Positions 21,379-56,741 of a stretch of 64,000 nt of DNA are shown here, one piece after another (position 1 is the first letter of the stretch; each line of letters begins with the position of its first letter). A model generated the notes under the pieces. It did no database searches, was not told the origin of the DNA, and worked only from the letters and a program-made list of their open reading frames with translations. Origin of the DNA: Candidatus Tectimicrobiota bacterium. GTDB lineage: Bacteria > JACPUC01. The stretch spans positions 1 to 64,000 of the forward strand of contig JACPUC010000006.1 in the NCBI GenBank assembly GCA_016192455.1, in the 5' to 3' direction. The translations under genes and the position numbers were made by a program.

Positions 21379-22689
21379 ATGAGCAGTCGCTTGCTGCAAC
21401 GGCTTGTAGGTTCGAAGCTCCTGGGTTCACAAGGATCGTTGCGGCAGAAAACCGTCGCCGGCAGCCAGTGGCTCATGGCGCGCTCCGCGGTGCTGGGTTT
21501 CACCGATCTGCTGCGGGCGGTCGTCTTCGCGCGCATCCTCTTCCCGGATGATTACGGCCTCATGGCCCTGGCCATGATCCCCATCGGCCTTTTCGAATCC
21601 TTCTCAACCACCGGCATCGACATCCTCATCCAGCGGGACAGCGACGAGTTTCGCCGCAAGCTGGAGAGCTACTGGACCATCAAGCTCGTACGCGGCTTCC
21701 TTCTCACCCTGCTCACCTGGTTCGCGGCGGAGCCGCTCGCCAGCTTATACCAACGACCTGATCTCGTTCCCTTGGTGCGCTTCCTGGCGGTGCGGTTTCT
21801 CATCCTCGGCGGTTGCGGGTTTGGCAAGGAAGTCAGGCAGCGCAGCATGGATTTCGTCAGCGTGGCGGTGGTTGAGTCCGCCAGCTCGGTTGCCGTCCTC
21901 CTCGTCAGCCTCGGGGCGGTGTTCGTGTGGGGAAACTTCTGGGCCCTGGCCATCGTCAGCATGGCCACCGCGGTCAGTCTCCTGGTAAGCTCGTACATCC
22001 TCTACCCCTGGCGGCCGGGACTGCGCCTCGAACGCTCGATCCTCAAGGATGTGGCGGCCTTCAGCGGCAGCCTCGTCATCATGAACCTTTTGAACGCCTT
22101 CTTCTCCTACTTCGATACCGGCGTGGTTGGCAAGCTTCTGGGAGTGGAGGAGCTGGGCTACTACGCCAGAGCCTACTTCCTCGCCTTGATTCCTGTCACC
22201 TACTTCTCAAACGTCGTCGCCCCCATCTTCCTGCCGGTGTTTCGACAGGTCGCCGACGATGCGCCTCGTCTCCGCCGCGCCTTTGGCAAGTCCGCGCTGG
22301 TGATAGGGCTGCTCGTCCTCATCATGGGGGGAGTATTCTTCCTCTTCGCCCGGGAGATCGTGGTGATCGTCTATGGTCGGCGCTGGCTGCCGGTGCTGCC
22401 GGTGTTTCAGGTCCTCCTCATCTTCGGCCTCGGCAAGAGCATCGTGGCCATCTGCCCGTCCATCTTCTTCCTGCGCAACAAGCCGTGGATGATCACCCTC
22501 TCCGCCGCCGTGATGGTTGTGGTCTTCGGCGCCCTCTGCATTCCCCTGACCATGGCCTACCACCTCCTGGGAACGGCGTGGTCGGTGGTCATCGCCTCGC
22601 TCCTCTCCTACGCGCTCTCCTTCGCGCTCGTGGGGTATCTGCTGGCCAGGCCAGCCCAGAGCGGCGCGCAAGGCCGCGAGGCGGCCTGA
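21379..22689 (+). CDS. Wzx-type polysaccharide flippase
   Basis: ARILFPDDYGL, VGKLLG.EELGYY.AY, many TM helices. Confidence 0.88.
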   Translation: MSSRLLQRLVGSKLLGSQGSLRQKTVAGSQWLMARSAVLGFTDLLRAVVFARILFPDDYGLMALAMIPIGLFESFSTTGIDILIQRDSDEFRRKLESYWTIKLVRGFLLTLLTWFAAEPLASLYQRPDLVPLVRFLAVRFLILGGCGFGKEVRQRSMDFVSVAVVESASSVAVLLVSLGAVFVWGNFWALAIVSMATAVSLLVSSYILYPWRPGLRLERSILKDVAAFSGSLVIMNLLNAFFSYFDTGVVGKLLGVEELGYYARAYFLALIPVTYFSNVVAPIFLPVFRQVADDAPRLRRAFGKSALVIGLLVLIMGGVFFLFAREIVVIVYGRRWLPVLPVFQVLLIFGLGKSIVAICPSIFFLRNKPWMITLSAAVMVVVFGALCIPLTMAYHLLGTAWSVVIASLLSYALSFALVGYLLARPAQSGAQGREAA

Positions 22690-22782
22690 GGCCGGCTGCC
22701 GCGGCGCCGCCGGGAGCTCGCCGGAGGCGGGGGTTACCGCGCTGCTGGCGCCGAGCAGGCGCCGGCCTGCACGAGGCCCGCG

Positions 22783-24018
22783 ATGTCCAGGCTGCCAAGG
22801 ATTCTCGTACTTGCCCCCGATCTCCCCTTCCCGGTGCGCGCCGGAGGCCAGATGCGCATGGCATCGTTGCTTCCGGCCATGGCGCGGGTCGCCACCCTGC
22901 GCATCGCCTGCATCGCGCCGGCTGTCCCGCAGGAGACCGCGCAGTGGGTACGCCGTCTGGGGGCCACGATCGCCCACTTCCCGCGCCCGCCGGTCAGAGG
23001 GATGCGGCTCTGGGGCGAGCGGGCGCGCATGCTCGCGACCGGCTCGAACCTGGTCTGGCGCAAGGCCGAGCAACGCTTCTTCGCGGCGCAGCGCCACGAG
23101 GTTGCGCCGCACCTCGTCTGGCTGGAGACGCCCTACCTGCTGCGCTACGCCTTGTCCTGGCGAGCGACCCTGCCGCTGGTCGTCGATTACTGGGGCACCT
23201 CCGGCGGGGCTCGGCGGGACTACCAGCACGCGCGCGGTCTGCGGCGACTCTGGGAGTGGCTGCGTTGGCGGGCCGCCCTTGGCGGCGAGCGTCGCTACGC
23301 ACGCCTGCTCCCCTACCTCGTCACCGTCTCCAGCCTCGATGCCGCCCACTTCCGCGCCCTGACGCCGGAAAGCCGCATCTGGGCCATCCCGAACGGCCGG
23401 TTCGGTGGCGCAGGCGAGGCCGGAGCCGGCGCCTGGGAGCCGCCGCCGAACCCGCAGCAGCTCATCATGACCGGCGACCTCGGCTACCGGCCCAACGTTG
23501 ATGCGGCCCAGTACTTCGCACGGCAGATTCTGCCGCTCATCCAGGCGCGGCGGCCGGAGGCCCGGCTGCGGCTGGTGGGACGCGATCCGCTCCCCGCGGT
23601 GCTGGCGCTGGCGCGTCTCCCCGGCGTCGAGGTGCAGGGGTACGTGCCCGATCTCGCCGCGGCCATCCGGCAGGCGGCGGTGTACATCCTGCCGATGCGC
23701 CTCGGCTCCGGCATCCGCTCGAAGCTCTTCGATGTTTTCCCGCTCGGCAAGCCCATCGTCTCGACGACGGTCGGGGCGGAAGGCCTTGAGCTGGTGCACA
23801 ACCAGAACTGCCTCATCGCCGATACGGCGGAGGAGTTTGCGCGCGCCTGCCTCTACGTGCTGGAGCATGAGGCGGAGCAGCGGCGGCTCGGCGCCCAAGC
23901 GCAGCGCCTGGCCCTTGAGGTTTACTCGCAGGCGAACGTGGAGCGCCTCGTCGCGGCGGCTCTTGGCGAGATGCTGCAGGCTGGCGCCTGCTCCCCCGAG
24001 AGCAGGTGGGGCGTCTGA
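22783..24018 (+). CDS. Glycosyltransferase family 4
   Basis: GDLGYRPNVDA, GYVPDL, PMRLGSGIRSK, STTVGAEGL. Confidence 0.88.
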   Translation: MSRLPRILVLAPDLPFPVRAGGQMRMASLLPAMARVATLRIACIAPAVPQETAQWVRRLGATIAHFPRPPVRGMRLWGERARMLATGSNLVWRKAEQRFFAAQRHEVAPHLVWLETPYLLRYALSWRATLPLVVDYWGTSGGARRDYQHARGLRRLWEWLRWRAALGGERRYARLLPYLVTVSSLDAAHFRALTPESRIWAIPNGRFGGAGEAGAGAWEPPPNPQQLIMTGDLGYRPNVDAAQYFARQILPLIQARRPEARLRLVGRDPLPAVLALARLPGVEVQGYVPDLAAAIRQAAVYILPMRLGSGIRSKLFDVFPLGKPIVSTTVGAEGLELVHNQNCLIADTAEEFARACLYVLEHEAEQRRLGAQAQRLALEVYSQANVERLVAAALGEMLQAGACSPESRWGV

Positions 24019-24430: not shown

Positions 24431-24467
24431 CCGTGTTGCGTGCCGATGAAGAGAAGGAGTGGGCGAG

Positions 24468-25226
24468 ATGGAACGATTTGCTGGGCGCACCGCCGTGGTG
24501 ACGGGGGCCGCATCGGGGATAGGCCGCGCTACCGCCTTGCTGTTGGCGCAGGAGGGGGCCATTGTTATAGCAGGCGACATCAACGCCGAGGGGGTGAACT
24601 CCACCTGCGCCACCATCGAGGCCTCCGGCGGCCAGGCGCTGCCCTGGGAAGTCGACGTGGCGCGGCGCGACCACGTGGAAGCGTTCACCCAGGCAGTGGT
24701 GGATCGGTTCGGCCGGATCGACGTGCTGATGAACATCGCCGGCATTGCACGCCGCGCCAACTTCATCGATTTTGACGAGGCGGTATGGGACCGCATCATG
24801 GACGTGAACCTGAAGGGGGTGCTGCACCTGTCGCGCACGGTGGCGCGGCACATGGTGGAGCGCGGCTACGGGCGCATCGTCAGCATCGCCTCCACCGCTG
24901 GCGAGGTCGTCTATCCCCACCTGGCGCCCGCCTATCACGTCTCGAAAGCTGGCATCATCCAGCTCACCCGTTACATGGCCCAGGAGCTGGCGCCGCACGG
25001 CGTCACCGTCAACGCCATCGGGCCGGGCATCATCGCCACGCCCAACACCGAGCCGTCGATCAGCGATCCGGAGTACGTGAAGACGGCCATGGCGCGCATC
25101 CCGATGAAGCGCTGGGGACAGCCGGAGGACGTGGCCTACGTGGCCCTCTTCCTGGCCTCGGATCACGCTGCCTACGTGACCGGACAGACGCTCTTCGTCG
25201 ATGGCGGCATGCTGACGCTCTTTTGA
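24468..25226 (+). CDS. SDR family oxidoreductase
   Basis: TGAASGIG, NIAG, YHVSK, VDGG; AAGGAG RBS. Confidence 0.9.
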   Translation: MERFAGRTAVVTGAASGIGRATALLLAQEGAIVIAGDINAEGVNSTCATIEASGGQALPWEVDVARRDHVEAFTQAVVDRFGRIDVLMNIAGIARRANFIDFDEAVWDRIMDVNLKGVLHLSRTVARHMVERGYGRIVSIASTAGEVVYPHLAPAYHVSKAGIIQLTRYMAQELAPHGVTVNAIGPGIIATPNTEPSISDPEYVKTAMARIPMKRWGQPEDVAYVALFLASDHAAYVTGQTLFVDGGMLTLF

Positions 25227-25284
25227 TCCGGCAGGCGGCGGCACCGTCGCGCTGCGCCCACCTTCCCCGCACGAGGAGACAGGC

Positions 25285-25788
25285 ATGACGCCAGCAACCG
25301 CGAAGGTTATCATTGAGGGCTTGAAGCAGGCCGGCATCAACTTCGTCACCACCCTGCCGGAGTTCAACCTGCAACCGCTGGTGCAGGCGATCCACGACGA
25401 TGCGGAGATCATTCACGTTCCCGTCTGCCGCGAGGAGGAGGGCCTCGGCATCTGCGCCGGCGCCTACCTTGGCGGCAAGCAGGCAGCCATGGTGCTCATG
25501 AACACCGGCTTCCTGCTGTCGGCGAACATCCTCACCACCCTCCACTACCACACGCAGATTCCCGTGCTCATGCTCATCGGCTACTCGGGTGGCATGGGCG
25601 AGCCCTACCCGGCCCATACCTCGCTCGCCAAGGTCACCGAGCCGGTGTTGCGCGCCCTTGACATTCCGTACGAGCTGGTGGGCCGCGTCGACGCCATGCC
25701 GAAAGCGATAAGGTACGCGCAGGTGCAGGCCCGGAGCTCGCGACAGCCGGCGGCCATCCTCATGTACCAGGATGTCCTCTTTACCTGA
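25285..25788 (+). CDS. TPP-dependent decarboxylase alpha subunit (sulfopyruvate decarboxylase ComD-like)
   Basis: GINFVTTLP, VCREEEGLGICAGAYLGG, IPVLMLIGY. Confidence 0.8.
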   Translation: MTPATAKVIIEGLKQAGINFVTTLPEFNLQPLVQAIHDDAEIIHVPVCREEEGLGICAGAYLGGKQAAMVLMNTGFLLSANILTTLHYHTQIPVLMLIGYSGGMGEPYPAHTSLAKVTEPVLRALDIPYELVGRVDAMPKAIRYAQVQARSSRQPAAILMYQDVLFT

Positions 25789-25836
25789 GTCCTGAATCGC
25801 ACCAGCGAAAAGCGCCGAACGGCGAAAGGAGCGGTG

Positions 25837-26436
25837 ATGAAACGGTATGATTGCGTGAAGGTCTTGGCGTCGGAGGTTTCGGAGGACACTCTGGCGGTGG
25901 TGACGATCGGCGGGCTGCGCCACGAGTGGCACCATGCCCGGCCGAGTCCGGCCAACTTCTTCATGAACAACATGGGCGGGGCGTCATCGGTTGGCCTTGG
26001 GCTGGCGCTGGCGCTGCCGCACCGCAAGGTGGTGGTGGTGGACGGCGACGGGGCGCTGCTGCTCAACCTCGGCATGCTGGCGACCATCGCCACGCAGGCG
26101 CCGCCCAACCTGGTCCACGTGGTCTTCGATAACCAGGTCTACGACTCCACCGCCCGCGTGCCCACCGCCACGGCCCACGGCGTCGATCTCGCCGGCATGG
26201 CGGCTAGCGCTGGTATCGCCAAGAGCTTCCGCGTCACCGACCTCGAAGGCTTCAAGGAACGCTGCCACCAGGCACTGCAGACCAACGCCACCACCTTCCT
26301 CTGCGCCAAGGTGGAGCCGGGCACCGCCGATGTCCCCGACCTCCCCGTCGATCACGTGGAGGTGAAGTTGCGTTTCGTGCGCTACCTCGAGAAGACGGAA
26401 AAGCTCTCCATCCACGGCCTGCCGCCATTGGAGTAG
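25837..26436 (+). CDS. TPP-dependent decarboxylase beta subunit (ComE-like)
   Basis: MGGASSVGLGLALA, DGDGALLLNLG, VFDNQVY (GDG...N TPP motif). Confidence 0.82.
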   Translation: MKRYDCVKVLASEVSEDTLAVVTIGGLRHEWHHARPSPANFFMNNMGGASSVGLGLALALPHRKVVVVDGDGALLLNLGMLATIATQAPPNLVHVVFDNQVYDSTARVPTATAHGVDLAGMAASAGIAKSFRVTDLEGFKERCHQALQTNATTFLCAKVEPGTADVPDLPVDHVEVKLRFVRYLEKTEKLSIHGLPPLE

Positions 26437-26454
26437 GCGAGCAGTGGCGGTTGC

Positions 26455-26570
26455 TTACTTTGCCGGAGCGAAGCCCGGGGATCGCTCGCTGGCGTAGCGG
26501 CCGTGGCAGGTGGTGCAGGTCGGCAGCATCTCTCCGAAGAGCCGCACCAGGAGGAACTGATCATGGTTGC
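26455..26570 (-). pseudogene. Possible c-type cytochrome C-terminal remnant
   Basis: LFGEMLPTCTTCHGRYASERSPGF with CxxCH; no credible start; adjoins the IS256 remnant. Confidence 0.3.
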
Positions 26571-26689
26571 GGGCCGGAGGAGAAAAGCGCGCTGACGTGG
26601 TGCTGGCCGCCGATGGTGGCCGCGACTGCCGGTGGGCGCTGACGGCGGCGGAGGTCGCGGCGCTGGGATTCGGCTTCGAGGCACCGGGC

Positions 26690-27566
26690 TGAGCCGAGAG
26701 CTTGCACGCCTCAGGCGCCACGCTCAGCCGCGAGGTGGCGACCTTCCAGCAGTGCGCCCTGGCGGACCCACTACCGCTATGTGCCGCTCGACGGCGTGGT
26801 GTCGAAGGTGCGCGGCGCCGTGGGTGTCCAGCGCAAGGTGGTCTTTCCTGCCTGTGCGTCGCAGGCAGACAAGTGCGCCCTAGGGATCAGCGCGGAGGGA
26901 CGGCGCGAGCTCCTCGCCCTGCGGGTTGCCGAGGCCGGGAGCGAGGCCGCCTGGATGGCGCTCCTCAACGACCTTTGCAGCCGCGGCCTGCGGGGACGGG
27001 CCTTGCGCCTCATCGTCACCGACGGCTGCCCCGGCCTGAAAGCCACCCTGGAGAGGGTTAACTCCTTCGCCGCTTCTCAGCGTGCTGGTTCAATGCCGTG
27101 CAGAACGTCCTCGCCAAGGTCCGCAGGCGCGATCAGGAGGCGGTCCTGAAGGGAGCCCGCGCCATCTCCGGGCCCCCGTGCGACGCGCCGCCCTGTCTGC
27201 CGACAGGCAGGCGTGGGCGCCATTTGGGCCTGCGCTTGGCGCGGCGCTTACCCCGAGTCCGCGCAGTGCCTGGAAAAGGACCTGGACGCCCTGCTGGCGC
27301 ACTGCTGCGAGCCGCCCGCCTTGCGGCCCACGCCCTGGACCACCAACCCCATCGAGCGCTGCTTCCGCGAGGTGCGCCGCCCTGTCTACCCGCCAGGCAG
27401 GCGCACTCGCCCCCTGTCTGCCGACAGGCAGGGATGGGGGGCTTCAACGACCAGGCCTCCCTGAAGCGCATCATCTACAGCGTCGTGCATCGCTTCAACG
27501 CCCAGTGGAAGAAACGGGAGCACCGCCCTTTACAAAGGCGTTTCTCCAAAAAACTCTTGACAGTCC
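26690..27566 (+). mobile_element. Degenerate IS256-family transposase with probable right inverted repeat
   Basis: YRYVPLDGV, GISAEGRRELL, LIVTDGCPGL, NVLAKV, TTNPIERCFREVRR, MGGFND; frameshifts; ends at CCAAAAAACTCTTGACAGTC. Confidence 0.85.
26847..27432. repeat. Four 20-27 bp palindromic mini-inserts (CCTGYCTG...CAGGCAGG type)
   Basis: 26847-26873, 27192-27211, 27381-27401, 27413-27432; a related copy at 43864-43884. Confidence 0.85.
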
Positions 27567-27584
27567 CGCAGGACGCCAACGTGC

Positions 27585-27614
27585 TTGCTATTCGTCAATG
27601 GTCTCAACTAGAAT
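27585..27614 (+). promoter_or_regulatory. Candidate sigma70 promoter
   Basis: TTGCTA-N18-TAGAAT upstream of the binding-protein gene. Confidence 0.4.
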
Positions 27615-27666
27615 GAGCTACTTTCCTAGAAAAGGACCGCGGGAATGACCAGAGGGAGGGAATGAA

Positions 27667-28686
27667 ATGCCTCGGCAACATACTCCGTACCTTAGCCTGT
27701 ATCGCGGACTTGCCTGGCTCACGCTGGTCCTGTTGCTGGCGATGGGGGATCGCCCGGCGGTGGCGCAGCCGTCCCAGGTGAACATGGGTATCCAGCCATT
27801 CATCTCGTACGTCCCCATTTTCGTAGCGCTCGACCAGGGGATGTTCGGGGAGCAGGGACTCGAGGTGAAAACCGAGACGTTCGCCTCGTCGCAGAAGATG
27901 ACCCCCGGGATTGCCTCGGGACAGCTCGATGTGGTTGGGGGAGCCCTGAGCGCCGCCTTCTATAACAGCATCGCCACGGGCCTGAAGATGAAGATCGTGG
28001 CCGACAAGGGACGCTGGTCAAAAGGTCACAGCATCACCCAGTTCCTCGTGCGCCGCGATCTCTACGAGAACGGGACGATCAAGTCAGTCGCCGACCTGAT
28101 TGGACGCAAGATTGTCAACAACTCCCCGTTGACCGGCCCCGTTTACTTACTCGCCATAGCACTCAAGCGTGCCGGCGGAGCGTACGATCATTCGAAAATC
28201 AGCTACATGGAGGTTCCCAAGATTTACCAGGGGTTGAAGAGCAAGGCGATCGAGGTGGGAACGTGCGTCGAACCATGGTGCTCACGGGCCGTGAGCGACG
28301 GCACGGCGGTCTCCCTGATAAAAGGAGAGGATTATCCTGAAACGCTGGACTTCCAGGTCGCCTACGTCATCTTTACCGACAAGTTCATCAGCGAGAAGCG
28401 CGAGACGGCGCAACGCTTCATGAACGCCTACGTGCGCGCGGTGCAGTTCTACCACGAGAAGGGCGAGCAAAGCGACCTCATCGCGCAGATCGTCAGCAAG
28501 CACACAAAGATTCCTCCTGCCATCGTCAAGGCCGCGGCGCCTACCGGCATCGCCCCGGATGCCATGCCGAATATCAAGAGCGTGGCCGATTTCCAGGATT
28601 GGCTCTACGAGCAAGGGTTCGTGAAGCAGAAGCTCGAGATCAATGGCCTCTGGGATCCGAGCTTCGTCAAGAACGCGACGAAGTAA
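27667..28686 (+). CDS. ABC transporter substrate-binding protein, NitT/TauT (SsuA/TauA-like)
   Basis: Signal peptide; QPFISYVPIFVALDQG.F..GL, SGQLDV, KIVADKG, VEPW. Confidence 0.85.
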   Translation: MPRQHTPYLSLYRGLAWLTLVLLLAMGDRPAVAQPSQVNMGIQPFISYVPIFVALDQGMFGEQGLEVKTETFASSQKMTPGIASGQLDVVGGALSAAFYNSIATGLKMKIVADKGRWSKGHSITQFLVRRDLYENGTIKSVADLIGRKIVNNSPLTGPVYLLAIALKRAGGAYDHSKISYMEVPKIYQGLKSKAIEVGTCVEPWCSRAVSDGTAVSLIKGEDYPETLDFQVAYVIFTDKFISEKRETAQRFMNAYVRAVQFYHEKGEQSDLIAQIVSKHTKIPPAIVKAAAPTGIAPDAMPNIKSVADFQDWLYEQGFVKQKLEINGLWDPSFVKNATK

Positions 28687-28821
28687 TCGCCCCGAGCGTG
28701 ATACCCCTTCGCTCGCTCGCCAGGCACTTCGTGTCTTGGTGTCAGCTCTGCTCCGCCCGCGGAGGTCAGTGCATCCCCGCCACGTGGCTCCTGTGCCGTT
28801 CAATGGAAGGAATGCGCAACG

Positions 28822-30270
28822 ATGGGCTACCACGACATCCGAGAGTTCATCAGCGTGCTCGAGGCCCATGGCAAGCTGCGGCATGTGAAGAAAGAGGTCG
28901 ATCCGAGCTGGGAGATCGCCGGCATGGCGCGCTGGGTGTACCAGGGCTTCCCCGAAGAGCGGCGCTTCGCGCTCGTGTTCGACAACGTGAAAGACTCGTC
29001 GATCCCTGTCGCCACCGCCCTCATCGGCGCCTCTCGCGAGGTGTATGCGCTGGCGCTGGGAACCACGCCGGAGAAGATCCATGAGGTGTGGCTGCAGGCG
29101 TTGCGACACACCATCCCCCCGCGCCTCGTGAGATCTGGCCCCTGCCAGGAGGTCGTCATTGGCCGAGAAAAGGTGGACCTCTCCGCCCTGCCGGTGCCGA
29201 CCTGGACGCCCGGCAAGGACATGCGACCCTGTATCACGGCCGTCGTCATCACCAAGAATCACGATACCGGCGTGCAGAATATGGGGACCTACCGCTGTCA
29301 GGTGCAGTCCAAGGACACCGTTACCTTGAACACGATGCCAGGCCGGCAAGCCTATCAGAACTACGAATCGTACGCTCGGCACGGCAAGCCGGCGCCGCTG
29401 GCCGTGGCCATCGCCTGCGAACCTGTCGTTCACCTGGCGACGTCCGCGGCGCTGCCGAAGGGGATCGACGAGCTCCACCTGGCTGGGGCGCTGAAAGGAG
29501 CCGCCGTCGCCACGGTGCGCGCCATGACGGTCGATCTCCAGGTTCCCGCCAACGCCGAAATCATAGTCGAGGGCGAGTTACAGCCGTCGAAGACCATGCA
29601 AGAAGACTCCTTCGGGGAGTTTGCCGGCTACATGGGGCCGGGTGGGCAGAAGCCGTTCTTCCAGGTGGCGAGCATGACGCATCGCTCGAACCCCATTTAT
29701 TATGGCTACATCAGCCAGTTCCCGCCGAGCGAGAGCACAATGATTCAGGGGAACGCCAACGAGTGCATGGTGCATAAGCTTCTGGTCGATGACTTTGGCG
29801 AGACGACCGTTGTCGATGTGGCGATCAACCAGACACATGGCGGCAACCTCGGCCATGCGGTGGTGCAGATGACGCCGATCTACCCGCAGCACGCGATGCA
29901 CGTAGGACGACTCGTGGCTGAACTCACCCGCTTCAAGATGATCACCATCGTCGATTGTGACATCGACATCCGTGACCGGCAGCATCTGGACTGGGCATGG
30001 AACTCGCGGGTCAATCCGGCCAGGGATACGCTGGTGATCGAGAAGGTGTTCGTGCCAAACGACCCCGCGGCGGACCGCGGCATCACCTCGAAGCTCATCA
30101 TCGACGCCACGCACAAGGGCACCTTCCCCGATCTCTCCCTGCCCGCGAAGGAGGTGATGCTGCGCGCCTATGAGAGCTGGCAGGAGGCCGATCTGCCGGC
30201 CTTCAATCTCCCCAGCCGCGTTGAACGCCTCCTCGACTTTCATGCGCAACGTATGCAGGGTCAAACGTGA
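28822..30270 (+). CDS. UbiD-family (prFMN-dependent) decarboxylase
   Basis: DIREFISVLEAHGKL..V..EVD, DL..LPVP, NMGTYR, VPANAEIIVEG, EDSFGEFAGY, VDCDIDI, SKLIIDAT. Confidence 0.92.
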   Translation: MGYHDIREFISVLEAHGKLRHVKKEVDPSWEIAGMARWVYQGFPEERRFALVFDNVKDSSIPVATALIGASREVYALALGTTPEKIHEVWLQALRHTIPPRLVRSGPCQEVVIGREKVDLSALPVPTWTPGKDMRPCITAVVITKNHDTGVQNMGTYRCQVQSKDTVTLNTMPGRQAYQNYESYARHGKPAPLAVAIACEPVVHLATSAALPKGIDELHLAGALKGAAVATVRAMTVDLQVPANAEIIVEGELQPSKTMQEDSFGEFAGYMGPGGQKPFFQVASMTHRSNPIYYGYISQFPPSESTMIQGNANECMVHKLLVDDFGETTVVDVAINQTHGGNLGHAVVQMTPIYPQHAMHVGRLVAELTRFKMITIVDCDIDIRDRQHLDWAWNSRVNPARDTLVIEKVFVPNDPAADRGITSKLIIDATHKGTFPDLSLPAKEVMLRAYESWQEADLPAFNLPSRVERLLDFHAQRMQGQT

Positions 30271-30404
30271 ACCAGCCGTTCGATTCACGGAGGACCGCCC
30301 GGCCCCCCCCTCCGGCGCGCCGGGGAGTCCGGCATCGCTGCCGGTCTTATGCTGAGCCTCTACGCTCGGAGCCAGGTGGCGAGAGCAGCAAGGGGAGGAT
30401 TGCC

Positions 30405-30998
30405 ATGGCCTACATCAGGGTCATTGATGAGCACGAGGCCAGCGGAGAGCTTGACCTCGTCTATCAGAAGTATCGGGACCAGTACGGCGTGGTGCCGGAA
30501 ATCCGCAAGGTCCTCTCCCTCAAGCCGGGCTTTGTCACGCTCTACGATGCCTGGGTGCACAGCATCACCTTCGGCGGCTCGCGCTTGGGCCGCTACCGGG
30601 AAGAGTTGATCGCCGTGCTCGGCTCCTCGCTCAATAAGAGCAGCCACTGAACGGTCGCCCACGGAGAGTTTCTCCGTCAGACCCTGGGAGGCGACCAGGA
30701 GCAGGTTCTACGCATCCACGCGGATTACCGTGCCGCGGGGCTGGCGCCGGCCGATGTGGCGATGCTTGATTTCGCGCAGAAGGTCCTGGTGGCATCTCAT
30801 ACGATCGAGGAGGAGGACGTCCGAGCGCTGCGCCAGCATGGCTTCACCGACGAGGAGATCCTTGATATCACCTTGATCGCCGCTCAGCGTGCCTTCATCA
30901 GCCGCGTGGCGAATGCGCTTGGCGTGCCCATCGAACCGCGGAATCAGCATCTGGACGAGGAGTTCCTCAAGGCACTGAAGGTTGGCAAGCCGTGGTAG
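30405..30998 (+). CDS. AhpD/CMD-like peroxidase-related protein, probable selenoprotein (UGA at 30648-30650 read as Sec)
   Basis: GGAGG RBS; two in-frame ORF halves separated only by TGA at the redox motif (EELIAVLGSSLNKSSHU TVAH); C-terminal half LRQHGFTDEEILDI..AA..F.SRVANALG; hairpin immediately downstream. Confidence 0.85.
30653..30683 (+). promoter_or_regulatory. Bacterial SECIS-like stem-loop
   Basis: ACGGAGA-GTT-TCTCCGT perfect 7-bp hairpin (30661-30677) starting 10 nt after the UGA, G first in loop, lower stem GGTC/GACC. Confidence 0.75.
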
Positions 30999-31470
30999 GC
31001 GCCGAACATGCCGGTGGACCGGTTTCGCAGCGTCGTGCGAAGAGCGGCAGCCGGGAAGCGAGCCCCATGGCCTCTGGGGGTCTGCCGTCTGCGCGGAGGG
31101 GTGACGGGGTCAGAGCATAGGGCAGCGGCGCGACACGGGTTGGTCGCACCCGGCGGCTGGGATGGGGTCCGTCTGGCGCTTCAAGCGGTGTGCCGGCCCA
31201 TTCCGAGCAAGATGCCTTGACGCAGGAAGGTCCTTGGGGATAGGGTTCCGGATATGAAGACGGCTGCCTCGGTCAACGAGCGGTATCCGGAGGCGCACCG
31301 TTGTGGGGCGGGGGTCTTGCCTGGGGTGGCCTCGGGCTGACGAGCGAGGAGACCACCTCGGCGATGCAGCCGCTCGTTGGAGCGAGGAGAGATGTTACGT
31401 GGGACGGCGTGCACGAGCGGCAGGTGATCGTGTCGTGCCGAAGGGGTGGCGGAGAAGGGGGGATGGCACC

Positions 31471-32499
31471 ATGAAAAGAAGGCCGGCAGGAGGGTTCGAG
31501 GGCTGGTGTCGCACGGCAGGAGTCGCCGCCGCCGTTGCGGTTCTTCTACTCCTTGGGAGCGCGAGGGGGAATGCCCAGCCTCTCGAGAAGGTGAAGATGG
31601 CGTACCAGCCGTTCATCTCCTATGCGCCGCTGTTCATCGCCATGGAGAACGGCTACTTCAAGGAACACGGGATCGACCTCGAGATCACCTTCCTGGACGG
31701 ACCGAGGGCGATGCTGCCAGCCTCGCGCGGCGATCTCGACGTGATCGGCGGCTCGATTGGCGTCGGGTTCTTCAACAGCGTGGCGCAAGGATTGGACTTC
31801 AAGGTCGTGGCCGACAAAGGGCAGATCCGTTATGGCTACGGCTACGTGCCGATCGTCATCCGCAAAGCTTTGTGGGAGAACGGCACGGTGCGACTCTACC
31901 GAGACCTGGCGAAGATACGCATTTCCAGCAACAGCCCGGGCAGCTTCGGCATGTACCAGTATGCTATGGCCTTGGAAGAGGCCGGCGTTCCGTACGAACA
32001 TGAGAAGCTGAAGTACCTGGATCCCCCCAAGTGCGTCAATGCGCTGACGACCGGAGCCATCGACGCCTGCTGGATGCCCGAGCCCTGGGCCACGCGAGCC
32101 GAGCGCCTCGGCGTGGGCAGGATTTTCGTCACCACGGATCAGCTCAACGCCATGAAAGGCTACCAGGTGGCGGTCGTCATTTACTCAGGCAAGTTCATTC
32201 GGGAACGCCGCAACCTTGCCCAGGAATGGATGAAAGCGTATATCCGCGGCGTCAGGTTTTACCACGAGAAGGGGCCGGTCAGCGATGCCGTCGTCTCGAT
32301 CCTCAACAAGTACACGAAAGTAGAACCCGATGTCATTCGCGCTGCCATCCCGGTCTACTTTGTGCCCGACGGTTCCGTGAACCTCGACAGTGTGAAGCGC
32401 TTTCAAGAGTGGTGCTTCCAACGCGGTTTTGTGAAGGAGAAAGTGGATTTAGATAAGGTGGTGGATCTCAGCTTCATTCGCGCCGCCATGCAACAGTAG
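31471..32499 (+). CDS. ABC transporter substrate-binding protein, NitT/TauT family (paralog of 27667-28686)
   Basis: QPFISYAPLFIAMENGYF, RGDLDV, KVVADKG, PEPW. Confidence 0.85.
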   Translation: MKRRPAGGFEGWCRTAGVAAAVAVLLLLGSARGNAQPLEKVKMAYQPFISYAPLFIAMENGYFKEHGIDLEITFLDGPRAMLPASRGDLDVIGGSIGVGFFNSVAQGLDFKVVADKGQIRYGYGYVPIVIRKALWENGTVRLYRDLAKIRISSNSPGSFGMYQYAMALEEAGVPYEHEKLKYLDPPKCVNALTTGAIDACWMPEPWATRAERLGVGRIFVTTDQLNAMKGYQVAVVIYSGKFIRERRNLAQEWMKAYIRGVRFYHEKGPVSDAVVSILNKYTKVEPDVIRAAIPVYFVPDGSVNLDSVKRFQEWCFQRGFVKEKVDLDKVVDLSFIRAAMQQ

Positions 32500-32516
32500 G
32501 AAGGGAGGAACCAGCC

Positions 32517-34262
32517 GTGGCTCTCCGTGATCTAGCCGAAGTCTACGAGACGGACATCCTCGTCGTCGGGGGTGGTCTGGCGGGATCGTTCGCTGCCATC
32601 AAGGCCCGCCAGAACGGCGTCCAGAGGGTGGCGCTCGTCGACAAGTCGGTCCCCGGCAAGAGCGGCTGCAGCACCTTCGCCGCTGGGGTCATCGCGGCGC
32701 ATTTTCCGCATCAGGACAGCCTGCAGCAATGGATGGAAGAGCTGTGCGAGCTGGGCGGCTATCTGAACGATCAAGCCTGGCTCGAGATCGTCTTGACCGA
32801 AGTGTTTGGGTACGTGGAGGAGATGGCGGGCTGGGGGGTGAACTTCCTGCGTAAGGCCGATGGCGACTACGAGCGCATCGTCGGCCGCGGCGGCGGTCCC
32901 GGCCGAGGTCTGCGCAATATCATGTTCCACGGCCCGCAGCTCATGGAGCCTGTCGTCAAGCAGCTCCGTCTCCTCGGGGTGACGCGCTACGATCGCACCA
33001 TGGTGACCGACCTCCTCGTCAAGGACGGCCGCGTGCTCGGCGTCGGCGGCTTCAACGTCCTCGATGGCGGCTACCGCATCATCAAGAGCCGGGCGACCAT
33101 CCTCAGCGCCGGCGGCACGTACTCGAAAGGCTCCTTCGTCTCCCATAAGAACCTCAGCGGCGATGCCCACGCCATGTGCGTGCGGGCCGGCGTGGAGCTG
33201 ATGAACTTCGACTTCACCAGCCGCAACCAGTCCTGCACCGAGTTCGATACCGAGGGGATGAACATGTTCGTGGCGCTCGGGGGCAGATTCATCAATGCCC
33301 GCGGCGAGGAGTTCATGCCCGAGTACGACCCGGTCCTCGGCAACCGTACCACCAAGCCGGTGATGGCGGCGGCCACGGCGCTCGAGGTGAAGGCAGGACG
33401 AGGCCCGATCTACATGGACATGACCCACTTCACGCCCGACAAAGTGCAGAAGCTGCGCCAGGTGCTGCCGCTCGCGTCCCTGATCCTGCAGCGCGCCGGC
33501 GTCATGGTGGGCGACCGCATCAACCGCAAGCTGGCGTGGGGACCAGCGGGGGTCGGCACCGTCGCCTTCGGCGGCGGCGCGCGCATCACCACGCGCTGCG
33601 AGACCTCCATGCCCGGACTGTACGCGGCGGGCGATTCCGCGGCGCGGCATGGCGCGGGCCACAATGAGATGGGGGCGGGGGCCCTCACGTGGGCTATCGT
33701 CAGCGGCGCGCGGGCCGGCCGCTGCGCCGCCGAGGATTACTCCCAGTTCGACCTCGAAGATGCCGACGTGGCCTTCGTGGAGGAGCGGCGCGAGGCGGTC
33801 CTCAAGCCACTGCGGCGCAAGACCGGCGTGGAGCCCGAGCAGACGATCCTCGCCATCCAGGAGGCCGTGCATCCCTGGAACGTGCTCGAGCTGCGCCACG
33901 AGAAGCGCCTGCAACGCGCCCTCGACAGGATCCTGGAGATCAAGGAGCTGCATCTTCCGCGGCTGTGCGCCTACGATCCGCACTACCTCATCCTGGCCCA
34001 CGAGGCCGAAAGCCTTGCCATCACCATGGAGCTCATCCTGCGGGCCGGCCTGGAGCGCAAGGAGAGCCGCTGCAATCTGCGCGAGGACTACCCGGAGATC
34101 GATAACATCAACTGGCTGAAGTGGATCATCCTGCGGCCCGAAGGGAAAAGCTTCGCCTTCCGCACCATGGAGATCCCCGAGGGACCGGTCAAGTTCAAAC
34201 GCGTGAAACGCCTGCACCCGCTGTTTACCGCGGCCGGCTTGACCGAAGTAGGAGCGAGGTAA
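32517..34262 (+). CDS. FAD-dependent oxidoreductase, AprA/AsfA/fumarate-reductase flavoprotein superfamily
   Basis: ETDILVVGGGLAG, KSGCS, SGDAHAM.RAG, GLYAAGD, ERKESR..REDYPEIDN.NW. Confidence 0.85.
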   Translation: MALRDLAEVYETDILVVGGGLAGSFAAIKARQNGVQRVALVDKSVPGKSGCSTFAAGVIAAHFPHQDSLQQWMEELCELGGYLNDQAWLEIVLTEVFGYVEEMAGWGVNFLRKADGDYERIVGRGGGPGRGLRNIMFHGPQLMEPVVKQLRLLGVTRYDRTMVTDLLVKDGRVLGVGGFNVLDGGYRIIKSRATILSAGGTYSKGSFVSHKNLSGDAHAMCVRAGVELMNFDFTSRNQSCTEFDTEGMNMFVALGGRFINARGEEFMPEYDPVLGNRTTKPVMAAATALEVKAGRGPIYMDMTHFTPDKVQKLRQVLPLASLILQRAGVMVGDRINRKLAWGPAGVGTVAFGGGARITTRCETSMPGLYAAGDSAARHGAGHNEMGAGALTWAIVSGARAGRCAAEDYSQFDLEDADVAFVEERREAVLKPLRRKTGVEPEQTILAIQEAVHPWNVLELRHEKRLQRALDRILEIKELHLPRLCAYDPHYLILAHEAESLAITMELILRAGLERKESRCNLREDYPEIDNINWLKWIILRPEGKSFAFRTMEIPEGPVKFKRVKRLHPLFTAAGLTEVGAR

Positions 34263-34264
34263 CC

Positions 34265-34483
34265 ATGGGTATCCGCTTGATCCAGGAAGAGCTGTGCACG
34301 GGCTGCGGGGTGTGCGTCATCTCCTGCCCGATGGATGTCATCAAGTTGGATGAGGAACGCCGCAAGGCCATCGTCCAGTACATCCGCGATTGCCAATGCT
34401 GCTACATGTGCGAGCGCGACTGCCCCGAAGACATCATCTACGTCACGCCGGATCGCGAACGGCGTATCCCTCTTGCCTGGTAG
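34265..34483 (+). CDS. 2x[4Fe-4S] ferredoxin (AprB/AsfB-like)
   Basis: CTGCGVCVISCPMD and CQCCYMCERDCP; starts 3 nt after the flavoprotein stop. Confidence 0.9.
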   Translation: MGIRLIQEELCTGCGVCVISCPMDVIKLDEERRKAIVQYIRDCQCCYMCERDCPEDIIYVTPDRERRIPLAW

Positions 34484-34497
34484 GAGGCGACCAGCCA

Positions 34498-35730
34498 ATG
34501 GCCGAGCGAGCTGCACGCTACGTCATCATCGGGAATGGCATCGCCGGGTCGGTGGCGGCCCGCCGCTTGCGGGAGTTTGACCGCGCGTGCCGCGTCAGCC
34601 TGCTGACGGATGAGCCGTATCCGCTCTACAACCGCGTCCGGCTGCCGCACTACCTGAAGGGGATGATCAGCCGGGAAGAGGTGTTCATGCGCTCGGCGGA
34701 AGAGGAGAAGGCTCGCGGCATCGACTTCCTCGCCGAGACCACGGTCAGTGCCGTGCACGCGCAGGAGAAATTCGTAGAGTGCGCGGACGGTCGACGGTTG
34801 CCGTTCGACCGCTTGCTCATTGCCACCGGCGGCAGGCCGAGGCGGCTGTCGGTCCCCGGCGCCCAGGGGCCGGGAGTCTTCACCTACCAGTACCTCGACG
34901 ATGTGAACGCCATGCGCGAGCTGCTGCCGAACGCCAGGCGCGCCATGGTTGTCGGTGGGTCGCTCATCGGCTACGAACTGGTGGCGGCGTTTCGCGAATG
35001 GAACCTGGAGACCACCTGGCTCATTCGTGGTCCGCACTTCATGCACCGGCAAATCGACGCCGAAGCGGGAGCCCTCGTCTCCCGGATCGCTCAACGCCAC
35101 GGCGTCAAGGTCATCTACGGCGAAGAGGTGGCGGAGATGCAGCGCGCGAACGGCTCGGTCTCCGAGGCGCGCACCACCGGCGGGCGCACCATCTCCTGCG
35201 ATCTTGTCGGCGTTGCCGTCGGCTTGAAGAAGAACATCGACTTCCTCCAAGGGTCGACGATTGCGCTCAATGAAGGGGTGCTGACGGACGAGCACCTCGT
35301 CACCTCGCACCCGGACGTCTACGCCGCTGGCGATGTGGCGGAGTTCAACGATCTCGTGGTTGGCCAGCGCAGTCTCCTCGGCACCTGGCACAACGCCTCG
35401 CTGCAGGGCGAGCTTGTGGCGAAGAACATGCTCGGCGCACAACTCGTGTTCAAGGCCGTGCCGATCTACTCCAACCCCCTGTTCGACTCGCGGATCAAGG
35501 TTATCGGCATCACCTCGCAGAGCGATCGCTCGCTGGAAAGCCTGGTGAAGAACGAACCGGACCAGGGGCGGTACCTGCGCCTCTTCTTCCGCGGCGCTCA
35601 GCTTGTGGGCGCGGTCATCATCGGCAAGATCGACTATCATCTCCGCGTCGCCCTCATGAAGTACATGCTGACCGGCGAGCACGTTCCCAACAAGCAGCAC
35701 CTGATCGCAACCCAATCGCATACCGTGTAG
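34498..35730 (+). CDS. FAD/NAD(P)-dependent oxidoreductase (ferredoxin/rubredoxin reductase-like)
   Basis: IIGNGIAG, Y.R..L, LLIATGG, VVGGSLIG.E, DVYAAGDVA. Confidence 0.88.
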   Translation: MAERAARYVIIGNGIAGSVAARRLREFDRACRVSLLTDEPYPLYNRVRLPHYLKGMISREEVFMRSAEEEKARGIDFLAETTVSAVHAQEKFVECADGRRLPFDRLLIATGGRPRRLSVPGAQGPGVFTYQYLDDVNAMRELLPNARRAMVVGGSLIGYELVAAFREWNLETTWLIRGPHFMHRQIDAEAGALVSRIAQRHGVKVIYGEEVAEMQRANGSVSEARTTGGRTISCDLVGVAVGLKKNIDFLQGSTIALNEGVLTDEHLVTSHPDVYAAGDVAEFNDLVVGQRSLLGTWHNASLQGELVAKNMLGAQLVFKAVPIYSNPLFDSRIKVIGITSQSDRSLESLVKNEPDQGRYLRLFFRGAQLVGAVIIGKIDYHLRVALMKYMLTGEHVPNKQHLIATQSHTV

Positions 35731-35796
35731 CGCCGCGCGCCGCCGAAGCCCGCGCAGGCGTCGCGACATGCTGCCAAACCATGGAGACGACACGGG

Positions 35797-36969
35797 ATGC
35801 ACAGAGAGGCGCGGAAAGAAACCGGGTTAACGTTCTACCGCAGGGATCGCGCCTATCCAGGCTATACACTCTATGCACCGCTGGTAGGCCAGGGCGACGT
35901 CTACCTCATTGACATGCTTGGCAACATCGTCAAGCGCTGGAAGCTGTCCGAACCACCTGGCAACTATGGGTTCCTGCTCCGAAACGGCAACCTCCTCTAT
36001 TCCGGCCGCACGCCGACTGGACAGGTTCTCCTTGGCGGCAAAGGGGGTGTTCTCTACGAAGTCAATTGGCAGGGTGACATTGTCTGGGACTACCGCAATG
36101 ATCTCATGCACCACGATTTCGACCGCCTGCCCAATGGCAATACCATGGTGCTCGTTTGGGAATCCGTGCCGGCAGAGCTGTACGAAAGCATCAAAGGAGG
36201 CGTCCCGGGCACCGAGCAGAATGGTGGTATCTGGGGTGATGCAATCCTTGAGGTTACGCCCGCGGGACGCGTGGTCTGGGAGTGGCACGGATATGAGCAC
36301 CTGGATGGCGCCGAAGACAGCATCTGTCCACTCTGTCCGCGAAACCAATGGACCCATGCCAATGCCATCGAGTATGTGGAGTTGCCCGGCGGTAAACCAG
36401 CGATCTTGATCAGTTTCCGTTTCCAGAACACCCTTGCCCTGATCGACCGGAGTACCGGCGACTGGATCTGGAAGTGGGGACGCGATGATCTCGGCCACCA
36501 GCACGATCCGACGATGCTCGACAGTGGCAATATCTTGGTGTTCGATAATGGTCTGCACTACCTGGTCAACAAGAAACATATGCAGCGGCAGATCCTGGCG
36601 CGAGGTACGCCGCGCTCGCGCCTTGTGGAGGTGAATCCTACAACGAACGACATCTGTTGGGAGTATATGGGTAACCCACGTTATTCATTCTTAAGTGCCT
36701 TCCTTAGTGGAGCTCAACGCCTACCGAACGGCAACACGTTGGCCTGCGAGGGCATCACGGGTCGATTCTTTGAAGTGTCCCAGGATGGTGAGGTGGTGTG
36801 GGAATACATCGTCCCATTCTACGGCGATTTTCGTGACTTCAAAAACGTGAATATGTGCTTTCGGTGCTATCGTTACGGTGCGGACTTTCCTGGCTTCTTG
36901 GGAAAAGATCTGGATGCAGAGAGCTACAAGTGGTTAAATCACATCGTTCGAACTACTGCTGTTAGCTAA
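35797..36969 (+). CDS. Arylsulfotransferase (ASST)-family beta-propeller protein
   Basis: AYPGYTL, MHHDF.RLPNGN, WTHAN, GHQHDP, VFDNG, SGAQRLPNGNTL.CEG. Confidence 0.85.
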   Translation: MHREARKETGLTFYRRDRAYPGYTLYAPLVGQGDVYLIDMLGNIVKRWKLSEPPGNYGFLLRNGNLLYSGRTPTGQVLLGGKGGVLYEVNWQGDIVWDYRNDLMHHDFDRLPNGNTMVLVWESVPAELYESIKGGVPGTEQNGGIWGDAILEVTPAGRVVWEWHGYEHLDGAEDSICPLCPRNQWTHANAIEYVELPGGKPAILISFRFQNTLALIDRSTGDWIWKWGRDDLGHQHDPTMLDSGNILVFDNGLHYLVNKKHMQRQILARGTPRSRLVEVNPTTNDICWEYMGNPRYSFLSAFLSGAQRLPNGNTLACEGITGRFFEVSQDGEVVWEYIVPFYGDFRDFKNVNMCFRCYRYGADFPGFLGKDLDAESYKWLNHIVRTTAVS

Positions 36970-37129
36970 AAAGTGTCCAAGGGCCCAACTTTTGCCGCCA
37001 ATCCAGTGTCCGAGCAATTACCACCTCTTCATGCAAGGCCGAGAGGTAACGCGCATTGGTGGCAACGTGCTTGCCGGGGTGGTCGAAGCCAAAACGGTGG
37101 GCCTCCGTCCGTAACCCGGCTTTTCCAGC

Positions 37130-37496
37130 CGGGGGTGCTGCGGCGCCACGCCCTCAGCCGGCGGAGCGCCCAGCTCATCGGCGTGCAGCCCAGGCAGCGC
37201 GAGGGGAGAGAGGTATTCCAGGCCGCTCTGCGCGACAGCTTCCACCTGCCGCAGCGCCTTGAGCATTCTCTCGGAGAGCGCAACTGGAAGATGCCCAAGC
37301 GCGGGGCTGCCTCGACTCCCGCAACAGCTCGATCCTGGCGCACCGGCTGCGGCCGTGCGCGGCGGCGGAGTACGAGCATCTGCGCGGCGAGGTCTGGAAG
37401 CTGGCGCGCGTCGTCATCCCCGACGCGCCTGAGCGCGCGCGGTCCTTGCAGTTTCCCTGGCTGGCGGGAGGATGCGGAGGCAGTGAAGGGGTATGA
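37130..37496 (+). pseudogene. C-terminal fragment resembling the TIGR02710-type CRISPR-associated CARF-HEPN protein
   Basis: ALRDSFHL..LEHSLGER, a 1-nt frameshift, then LDSRNSSILAH (37311 onward) ... LQFPWL; no N-terminus. Confidence 0.55.
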
Positions 37497-37749
37497 TGTT
37501 GCAAACCCGACGGTTCATGCCCGAAGGTGGAAACGATGGGAGCATGCCGTTAACGTTGGCGGCTACGTGACAAGCCAGGAGAACAGACGGTTGCGCTCGA
37601 GCGGCTGACTTACTTGGCTACTGACCGTCTTGTTCGAATATCGAGAGTTGAACCTCTTTTGGTGAAGTTGCTGGCTCATAGCAAAGGGGCTTTTTGGTCA
37701 CGTCTCTGGCTGGTACGAATTAGCAATCTCCTAGAAGTGATTCAGCGTT

Positions 37750-38424
37750 CTACTCCTCCTCCTCAAACCCATGATCTTTGAACTTCAGCGTGCGGCAGTT
37801 TTCGGTGACGGTGCGGACGATGTGGTCTGGTGCGCCATTGGGCAGCTTTGCCTGGATTTCGAGGGTAACCTCGACCTCGGCGCCAACGAGGCCGGCAAGG
37901 TGCTGGATCACCTCCTCGGCAATCTTCCCGGCGTCGCGCTTGCTTTCCCGCCGCGCCTGTTCCTCGAAGCGAATGCGCAGCAGCTCCTGCTTCTGCCGCT
38001 CGATCTCAGCCGCCTCCGGCGCGGCAATGGCGCTGAGCAGCCGCTGCATGCTGTCGAAGGCGCGGTAGGCGTCGTCGGTGTTGAAGCTCTGTTGGTGCGC
38101 CCACTGGTTGCGCACCTCGCGCAGCTCGCTCACCAGGCTGCGTTCGGCGTGGCCCAGGGTTTTCTTGAAGACAAGGTTCCACTCGTTCCAGAGTACGGCG
38201 AGGAGGATCTGCGTGTCTGAAGGGAGCGCGGGCGTCTCGCCCGCACGGGAACCGGCGGCCCCTCTCCCCTTCGCCTGCGGATGATCCGATGGGAAGCTCG
38301 CCAGCGCCGACTCACGCCACTGCTCCCCATGGGCCGCCTGCATCTCCCGCTCGATGAAGGGAATGAGGCCGCGGTTCAACAGCTCCAGGGCCTTGCCGAT
38401 GCGCTCGTGGTTGCTTGCCGCCAC
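37750..38424 (-). CDS. Swt1-like HEPN domain fused to the DUF499 C-terminal tail (DUF499 ATPase with the AAA+ core deleted in frame)
   Basis: NHERIGKALELL, LREVRNQWAH (Rx4H), FEEQARRESK directly joined to RDAGKIAEEVIQHL...VRTVTENCRTLKF..GFEEE; GGAGG RBS. Confidence 0.8.
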   Translation of the reverse strand: MAASNHERIGKALELLNRGLIPFIEREMQAAHGEQWRESALASFPSDHPQAKGRGAAGSRAGETPALPSDTQILLAVLWNEWNLVFKKTLGHAERSLVSELREVRNQWAHQQSFNTDDAYRAFDSMQRLLSAIAAPEAAEIERQKQELLRIRFEEQARRESKRDAGKIAEEVIQHLAGLVGAEVEVTLEIQAKLPNGAPDHIVRTVTENCRTLKFKDHGFEEEE

Positions 38425-38701
38425 GGCTTAATCCTCCGGATTGAGAAGGTATGGCTCGTCGTGCGGGCGGGACGCCCGCGCTCCACCCTCTCCTTGTGAC
38501 GCACGCCGGAGCGCGGGCATCTTGCCCGCAGGGGAGACCATGGAGACCACCATGCGCCGTGATTCCCCCTCGGTCGTGGCGCGGGCGGGCGCGGTGCGCT
38601 TTCCCTTGCGGGCGGGACGCCCGCGCTCCCAGCTTTTGTGTGACGCACGCCGGAGCGCGGGCATCTTGCCCGCTTCATTCGCGTCTACGTCGCGGCTCGG
38701 C

Positions 38702-42853
<4,152 letters not shown>

Positions 42854-43369
42854 AAGGATTTGCTCCTCTGGTCTTTTGGATCGGCGGAGAGATATCAAGC
42901 ATCATGTATGGTTGAGGGCATAGAATAACTAATTCGTAGGTGAAATGAAATGAAGCGGGATTGTTCAGGGGGGTGTCAATCTTGTTGCGGAAGGGGGCCA
43001 GCACAGGGAGCGGCTGTTCTTCAGGATCCGGGAAGCGGATGCGCCAGCGGCCTAAGCCTGCGACGCGGAGGAGCTTGGGAAGAATGATCGGTTGGGATTA
43101 GGGAAGGTTGCCGTAGAACCCAGCCTTGGTCCGATTGAACTCGGCGAATTTTGTTTCCTGGATGCTTTCTGGGTAGCTTGCCTGGAACCTTATCTTGTGG
43201 AAATGTTTGAGCTCCAGGCGTGTGATGAAAGCTTTGAAACTGCGACCTCTGAGGGAGATGGCGGAGCAGGAGCGATAGGGATAGAGGGTTGGAATCTCTG
43301 GGCCTTGCGTGGCGGATACCGTGGGGGCAAACCAACTTTGTGTGGCCGCGAAATTCGTGAGGTAAAAGC

Positions 43370-56716: not shown

Positions 56717-56741
56717 GGTTTCACTCCTCATGCCGCTCGGT

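Follow-up and report, generated by a model that had tools for sequence, protein, structure and literature searches.

In the window analysed here, a stretch of 64,000 nucleotides from contig JACPUC010000006.1 of a Candidatus Tectimicrobiota bacterium, the region 30405..30998 of the forward strand contains an AhpD-like gene with an in-frame TGA, and we estimate at roughly 0.8 the probability that this is an intact gene for a true selenoprotein in which selenocysteine (Sec) is inserted at UGA82 under the direction of SelB and a selenocysteine insertion sequence (SECIS) element. Translation table 11 breaks the frame into two open reading frames (ORFs), 30267..30650 and 30756..30998, which occupy the same reading frame, precisely as the first-pass annotation of this DNA had noted when it claimed that an AhpD-like gene is hidden here by an in-frame TGA. 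That claim holds: the region is a single frame of 197 codons followed by a TAG stop (30996-30998), its sole in-frame TGA is codon 82 (30648-30650), and the product matches the NCBIfam model TIGR01926 ('peroxidase-related enzyme') with 108.5 bits (cutoff 81.8), the match spanning protein residues 3-178 and profile positions 2-177 of 178. The Pfam CMD profile (PF02627) is matched as well (26.7 bits against a gathering threshold of 23), which indicates superfamily-level membership only, given that no single stretch passes the E-value threshold alone, the best one being residues 139-174. Among the selenoprotein equivalog models, NF041238 (AhpD_rel_CFYUT) scores 48.6 bits, below its cutoff of 175, and NF053654 gives a weak match.

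The choice of the ATG at 30405 as the start is supported by the homologues P0002 and P0003, which begin at the aligned MAYIR/MAFIR. A longer version starting from GTG 30267 was rejected, considering that the extension is rich in Pro and Arg and overlaps the stop codon of the upstream UbiD gene and that the homologues begin at MAYIR. Five solved relatives that share the AhpD core, 2pfx, 2prr, 3c1l, 6k40 and 2oyo, are recognized at the sequence level with E-values from 7e-23 to 2.5e-11. The AlphaFold2 model of the full-length protein, built from an 85-sequence alignment with U modelled as C, has a pLDDT of 97.2 and a pTM of 0.92, and when it is compared with solved structures using Foldseek, the best matches are 2prr, 3c1l and 6k40, with TM scores of 0.82-0.85 (0.80-0.85 for the whole set including 2pfx and 2oyo).

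The UGA codon in the AhpD active site

The peptide across the TGA reads NKSSH-U-TVAHGEFLRQ, and the 197-residue product, read with U82, contains no Cys at all. The alignment of homologues, which the first-pass annotation had proposed as a check on its claim that the TGA falls at the second Cys of the AhpD CxxC motif, comprised 152 proteins (2 from a word-indexed search and 150 from an exhaustive search), or 151 rows once the query's own N-terminal fragment was removed. In this alignment, column 82 is occupied by Cys in 116 of the 147 rows that are not gapped at this position, with Gly in 12 and Trp in a single one, so that the claim withstood the check. The first motif position, column 79, is more variable (Cys 82, Ser 35, Asn 24; n = 147), and the other two columns of interest are highly conserved, with Glu in column 67 of 125 out of 146 homologues that have a residue there and His in column 86 of 137 out of 148. 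In the solved structures 2pfx, 2prr and 3c1l, too, the residue aligned with the TGA codon is the second Cys. In AhpD of Mycobacterium tuberculosis, a relay of Glu118, Cys130, His132, Cys133 and His137 has been described (PMC3141380), and it is the second Cys of the motif, Cys133, that attacks AhpC (PMC6626918); Glu67 of the present protein precedes the first motif position by 12 residues, a spacing identical to that in the M. tuberculosis enzyme. Given that column 82 is Cys in the great majority of homologues and is the counterpart of Cys133, we have to conclude that the TGA replaces the most conserved, nucleophilic Cys of the family.

The five-residue AhpD relay (Glu, Cys, His/Tyr, Cys, His) is incomplete in this protein, with E67, H81, U82 and H86 in place and Ser79 standing for the first Cys. 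The first-pass annotation had described the replacement of the first Cys by Ser, the lack of any Cys and the resulting lack of a resolving thiol as unusual. The description is true of the protein but the qualification is wrong, considering the frequency of Ser in column 79 and the SxxC motif found in 30 of the 151 homologues. Judging from the alignment, SxxU is the Sec counterpart of this common single-thiol variant, since 6 of those 30 SxxC proteins have a single Cys in the entire sequence.

For Sec insertion itself, the interaction with SelB, the substrate and the reductant, we infer the following scheme. UGA82 would be recoded as selenocysteine when the complex of SelB, GTP and Sec-tRNASec binds the hairpin located immediately downstream during decoding of the UGA, with the result that Sec is inserted and the chain is not terminated. 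In the AlphaFold2 model, residue 82 lies at the N-terminus of helix 80-93, where Sec82 would stand in for Cys133, the nucleophile of AhpD from M. tuberculosis, with the selenolate of Sec82 activated by a relay of Glu67, His81 and His86. Catalysis by one selenol is to be expected because the first Cys of the motif is Ser and there is no other Cys in the protein. The oxidised partner that the selenolate would attack might be a peroxide, or else a protein or small molecule bearing a sulfenic acid or a disulfide, and the ensuing selenenic acid or selenenyl-sulfide would be resolved by an external thiol, without the formation of an intramolecular disulfide.

Recoding against its alternatives

The region past the TGA bears the marks of a coding sequence. 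Residues 83-97, TVAHGEFLRQTLGGD, have their counterpart in AVTHGEFLRQALGAD of P0002, a homologue with Cys, and the 115 codons downstream of the TGA contain no further stop or frameshift. The GC content by codon position is 0.75/0.37/0.77 past the TGA and 0.59/0.37/0.86 ahead of it; the neighbouring genes show a similar periodicity, which is missing from the flanking intergenic DNA.

The relatives of the protein in the databases point in the same direction. An exhaustive protein search against 1.84 billion representatives, which yielded 2267 matches at E <= 1e-3, detected no full-length homologue with more than 48% identity, in agreement with the word-indexed search; the nearest full-length homologues are 44-48% identical, and every relative closer than these is a fragment. 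Thus, P0004 (94% identical) is a C-terminal piece that covers the aligned residues 94-197, P0154, P0155 and P0156 (65-68% identical) are C-terminal pieces as well, and the starts of these four fragments fall at the aligned residues 93, 94, 101 and 101. The C-terminal halves contain 57 invariant columns among 5 sequences. On the N-terminal side, P0157 (81 amino acids, 49% identical) ends with ...ECSY at aligned residue 81 and is probably a CxxU relative, because this end abuts the aligned Sec codon. Taken together, the fragments suggest that the TGA is apparently conserved in the relatives. For the window's own 81-residue N-terminal piece, the records name 7 contigs, and this speaks against an assembly error. 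A further database match, P0106 (117 amino acids), has its first residue directly past the aligned Sec codon and may represent a third TGA-bearing lineage.

The third line of evidence is the hairpin. The first-pass annotation had reported a perfect hairpin 10 nt past the TGA and had likened it to a bacterial SECIS element located just 3' of the UGA. The hairpin is indeed there, at 30661-30677, starting 10 nt past the last base of the TGA, and its geometry is right, the UGA and the loop being 17 nt apart. In isolation, it has a folding energy of -8.4 kcal/mol (z = -3.26; 1 of 200 shuffled sequences is as stable). The published consensus model of bacterial SECIS (bSECIS) elements specifies a loop of 3-9 nt with G in position 1 or 2, a stem of 4-16 bp, a spacing of 16-37 nt and a minimum free energy (MFE) of -7.5 kcal/mol or lower (PMC13188914, legend of Fig. 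2), and the GUU loop, 7-bp stem, 17-nt distance and -8.4 kcal/mol found here lie within all four of the criteria given in that legend. The codons that form the stem are rare within their synonymous sets (GGA 0.10, TTT 0.17, CGT 0.08), and when the downstream codons were resampled synonymously using the codon usage of the window itself, a stem of 7 bp or longer arose in 1.2% of 20000 trials (P = 0.012) and a fold of the 53-nt region 30648-30700 equal to or better than the actual one in 3.6% of 3000 trials. The rare stem codons are moderate additional support for a SECIS element, and the hairpin as a whole exceeds the chance expectation only moderately. At five loci of Cys-type homologues, no stem longer than 4 bp is present in the SECIS geometry.

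Several observations weigh against recoding, and some of them speak for the strongest alternative, namely, that the gene is a pseudogene in which a TGC codon turned into a nonsense TGA, the other Cys of the motif was lost to Ser, and the hairpin happens to result from the coding of the conserved HGEFLR peptide. Both active-site changes, TGC to TGA and TGC to AGC, require one base substitution each, as would also be expected from decay of the active site, and the motif listed for the selenoprotein family is CxxU, not SxxU. A SECIS match alone is weak evidence: 171 of the 1554 TGA triplets in the window (11%, both strands) pass the bSECIS model with ungapped stems, and 2.4% of the 1554 have, in the SECIS geometry, a stem of 7 bp or more made up entirely of Watson-Crick pairs. 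The MFE fold of the 53-nt region has -22.2 kcal/mol, with a z-score of merely -1.85, and two of the five Cys-type loci fold about equally stably over the same length. The conservation of the TGA in the relatives rests on the boundaries of protein fragments, three of which lie on contigs with lengths of some 1-1.7 kb, and a protein search with residues 1-81 retrieved only P0006 and P0157 and no N-terminal partner of P0004 or of P0154-P0156. Furthermore, selA, selB, selD and tRNA-Sec are absent from the 64-kb window (73 ORFs were scanned, and ARAGORN and Rfam detected only a tRNA-Gly), and there is no sign of a second selenoprotein within it, considering that of 47 TGA read-through frames, 4 have a Pfam match and none of these spans the TGA.

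Nevertheless, we consider a pseudogene unlikely. In this scenario, one would hardly expect the region past the TGA to keep the GC periodicity of coding sequence together with the residues conserved in the family over 115 codons free of stops and frameshifts; nor does it sit well with the relatives, at 94% and at 65-68% identity, that also appear split and have conserved C-terminal halves, with the end of P0157 at the very same codon, or with the rare codons of the hairpin.

An alternative that accounts for the conservation of the downstream frame equally well is read-through independent of SelB, whereby a near-cognate or suppressor tRNA reads UGA82 as Trp, Cys or Gly, resulting in a full-length protein free of selenium, and the fact that Sec machinery is not established here is compatible with this possibility. 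However, TGA terminates 14 of the 32 Pfam-supported genes in the window, including the upstream UbiD gene. A genome-wide reassignment of TGA was rejected on the same grounds, and because TGA is an ordinary stop in this DNA, the recoding would be site-specific and not the product of a variant code. Moreover, the codon occupies the position of a conserved catalytic Cys, which is the hallmark of Cys/Sec pairs, Trp and Gly are rare in column 82, and a hairpin of the SECIS type lies at the right distance. We regard such read-through as quite improbable. Finally, a true split gene, where the N-terminal peptide of 81 residues and a C-terminal peptide with a start of its own assemble into one fold, is very improbable: gene callers do give separate N- and C-terminal pieces both here and in the relatives, but the first ATG, GTG or TTG past the TGA is codon 118 (GTG 30756), with no Shine-Dalgarno-like purine run ahead of it, and the scenario is disfavoured because a start at that codon leaves codons 83-117 untranslated although these encode the conserved xxxHGEFLRQ helix with the catalytic His86, and besides, the starts of the fragments vary among the relatives and the residue lost at the break is precisely the catalytic one. 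Insertion of Sec at UGA82 remains the reading that we favour.

Genomic surroundings

The features of the gene and of the genes around it are collected in the table.

Table. Coordinates of the AhpD-like gene, its sequence elements and its neighbours in the window
Position	Strand	Feature	Basis
30405..30998	+	AhpD-like (TIGR01926 peroxidase-related) candidate selenoprotein gene, UGA82 read as Sec	translation, TIGR01926, Pfam CMD, AlphaFold2, Foldseek, GC periodicity
30390..30399	+	Shine-Dalgarno-like AAGGGGAGGA, ending 5 nt ahead of ATG 30405	read from sequence
30603..30605	+	Glu67 codon, counterpart of proton-relay Glu118 of M. tuberculosis AhpD	Glu column, spacing
30639..30647	+	codons Ser79-Ser80-His81 (AGC AGC CAC); Ser79 in place of the first, resolving Cys of CxxC	translation, homologue column 79
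30648..30650	+	in-frame UGA, proposed Sec82, at the second (nucleophilic) Cys position of CxxCxxxH	homologue alignment, solved structures, end of P0157
30653..30696	+	predicted lower stem GGUCGCC (30653-30659) / GGCGACC (30690-30696) around the hairpin	MFE fold, prediction only
30660..30662	+	His86 codon, counterpart of His137 of M. tuberculosis AhpD	His column
30661..30677	+	putative bacterial SECIS upper hairpin: 7-bp stem ACGGAGA (30661-30667) / TCTCCGT (30671-30677), apical loop GUU (30668-30670)	fold, model criteria
24459-25226	+	SDR	domain scan
25285-25788	+	sulfopyruvate-decarboxylase-like, alpha	below NCBIfam cutoffs
25834-26436	+	sulfopyruvate-decarboxylase-like, beta	below NCBIfam cutoffs
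27082-27648	+	ORF of 188 aa without Pfam/NCBIfam match, may not be a gene	domain scan
27667-28686	+	SsuA-family binding protein	domain scan
28822..30270	+	UbiD-family decarboxylase, stop TGA 30268-30270	TIGR00148, 277.6 bits against cutoff 244.85
31303-32499	+	second SsuA-family binding protein	domain scan
32517-34262	+	fumarate-reductase-type flavoprotein	domain scan
34390-35730	+	pyridine-nucleotide-disulfide oxidoreductase (flavoprotein)	domain scan
35797-36969	+	arylsulfotransferase-like protein	domain scan
36973-37608	+	ORF of 211 aa without Pfam/NCBIfam match, may not be a gene	domain scan

The run of genes from 24459 to 36969, all on the forward strand, suggests an organosulfonate or aromatic-acid catabolic cluster. 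The AhpD-like gene is separated from the UbiD gene by a gap of 134 nt; a promoter and terminator scan of 28500-31500 detected neither between the two genes, and the fold of this intergenic region is no better than those of shuffled sequences. The first-pass annotation took the position of the gene behind UbiD as a hint at a role in the same pathway. The gene does follow UbiD, but the link to the pathway is unsupported, because none of the five distant Cys-type loci (L001-L005, 33-38% identity) that were among the matches listed in a profile search of genome contigs carries a UbiD gene: when the 11 neighbour proteins were compared with these loci using tblastn, only the SDR was found, in L001.

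A role of the protein within the putative catabolic cluster around it could still be imagined, whereby the Cys-free SxxU enzyme with its single selenol would act as a small-molecule reductase, rather than as a peroxide-defence adaptor, with the selenenyl intermediate resolved by an external reductant; we put this forward as a doubtful proposal. A small-molecule role for the AhpD fold does have a precedent, since the AhpD-fold debrominase Bmp8 (6ohi) is a structural neighbour of the model (Foldseek TM 0.75, E = 5.7e-5). The mechanisms of the Bmp8 debrominase and of the Sec-dependent deiodinases are parallel to the scheme with a selenenyl intermediate.

Several other features of the window were observed outside this run. 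In the region 38200-42350, a palindromic REP-like unit of 22-24 nt, TGCGGGCGGGACGCCCGCGCTCC, occurs in about 15 copies that point in both directions and surround a weak match to an IS200-type Y1 transposase (PF01797, 32.7 bits, frame 38702..42898, reverse strand); the region looks like a repeat cluster of the REP/RAYT type. Adjoining it is a gene at 37750-38424 on the reverse strand that encodes a Swt1-like HEPN domain (PF18731, 132 bits). Two large polysaccharide-export and glycosyltransferase clusters, at 13176-24018 and 53102-63875, contain Poly_export/SLBB, a GNVR tyrosine-kinase-like protein, Wzy_C, a Polysacc_synt_3 flippase and many GT2 and GT4 genes.

Comparison with known AhpD-like proteins and selenoproteins

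AhpD-like selenoproteins with a CxxU motif are a known family, as the first-pass annotation had stated: 27 sequences were reported from the Sargasso Sea in 2005 (PMC1088965), the GOS survey of 2008 gives 299 sequences for AhpD-like 1 and 70 for AhpD-like 2 (PMC2398784), and the table of prokaryotic selenoproteins in a 2026 review has the entry 'AhpD-like protein', with TIGR01926 and CxxU (PMC13188914). The present gene is probably a member of this family (TIGR01926 / COG2128, 'AhpD-like 1'), with a minor motif variant, SxxU. It shares with the family, as described in these sources, the profile model, the second motif position for the proposed Sec and the SECIS-type hairpin that lies immediately downstream of the UGA and has a G in its small apical loop, and differs from it in that the first motif residue is Ser and no Cys is present. 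In the same table of the 2026 review, SxxU appears only for the mercuric transport protein ('C/SxxU') (PMC13188914). A full-text literature search for SxxU, with supplements and BSepDB outside its scope, returned no AhpD-like protein among the matches listed, which comprised one SelO paper and otherwise titles that do not concern selenoproteins.

The family has been known since 2005, so beyond the missed annotation and the motif variant, the general picture is unchanged. The practical consequence is that standard gene calling cuts the gene into two meaningless pieces, and does likewise with its relatives in public protein sets; because of this splitting, annotation of the organism and its clade misses the selenoprotein and, along with it, the use of selenium that we infer. 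If the SxxU form is what it appears to be, the recruitment of Sec extends to the single-nucleophile branch of the AhpD-like family, and a lone selenol could be compared cleanly with a lone thiol within the AhpD fold, there being no other Cys to complicate the chemistry. Close to the present protein are the single-thiol SxxC and NxxC members of the family (for example, P0018, P0050, P0062, P0105 and P0148), which have Ser or Asn in the first motif position and the nucleophile in the second, and keep the Glu and the His, all as in the present protein, but carry Cys at the position of the UGA; to our knowledge, none of these proteins has been characterised experimentally.

Among the solved structures, 2prr, 2pfx, 3c1l and 2oyo ('uncharacterized peroxidase-related') and 6k40, the AhpD of D. 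radiodurans, are similar to the present protein in fold and length; none of the five is a selenoprotein, and 2pfx, 2prr and 3c1l carry CxxC in the printed alignments, unlike the SxxU found here. The relationship to M. tuberculosis AhpD (1knc, 1gu9) is of a different kind. The core of its Cys130-Ser-His-Cys133 motif is identical (SSHU here and CSHC there), and its Glu118, His132, Cys133 and His137, as given in the published accounts of the relay, correspond to E67, H81, U82 and H86, with Ser in the place of Cys130, whereas the topology differs, the Foldseek comparison with 1gu9 giving a TM of 0.38 and E = 0.18. No AhpC/Prx-type gene was detected by Pfam among the 73 ORFs scanned in the window. 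A final parallel is offered by the peroxiredoxin selenoproteins with the motif TxxU, in which, according to the published motif listings (PMC1088965, PMC2398784), a hydroxyl residue stands three positions ahead of a lone Sec, as it does here. These proteins have a thioredoxin-like fold whereas that of the present protein is the all-helical AhpD/CMD fold, so that the likeness is one of motif only.

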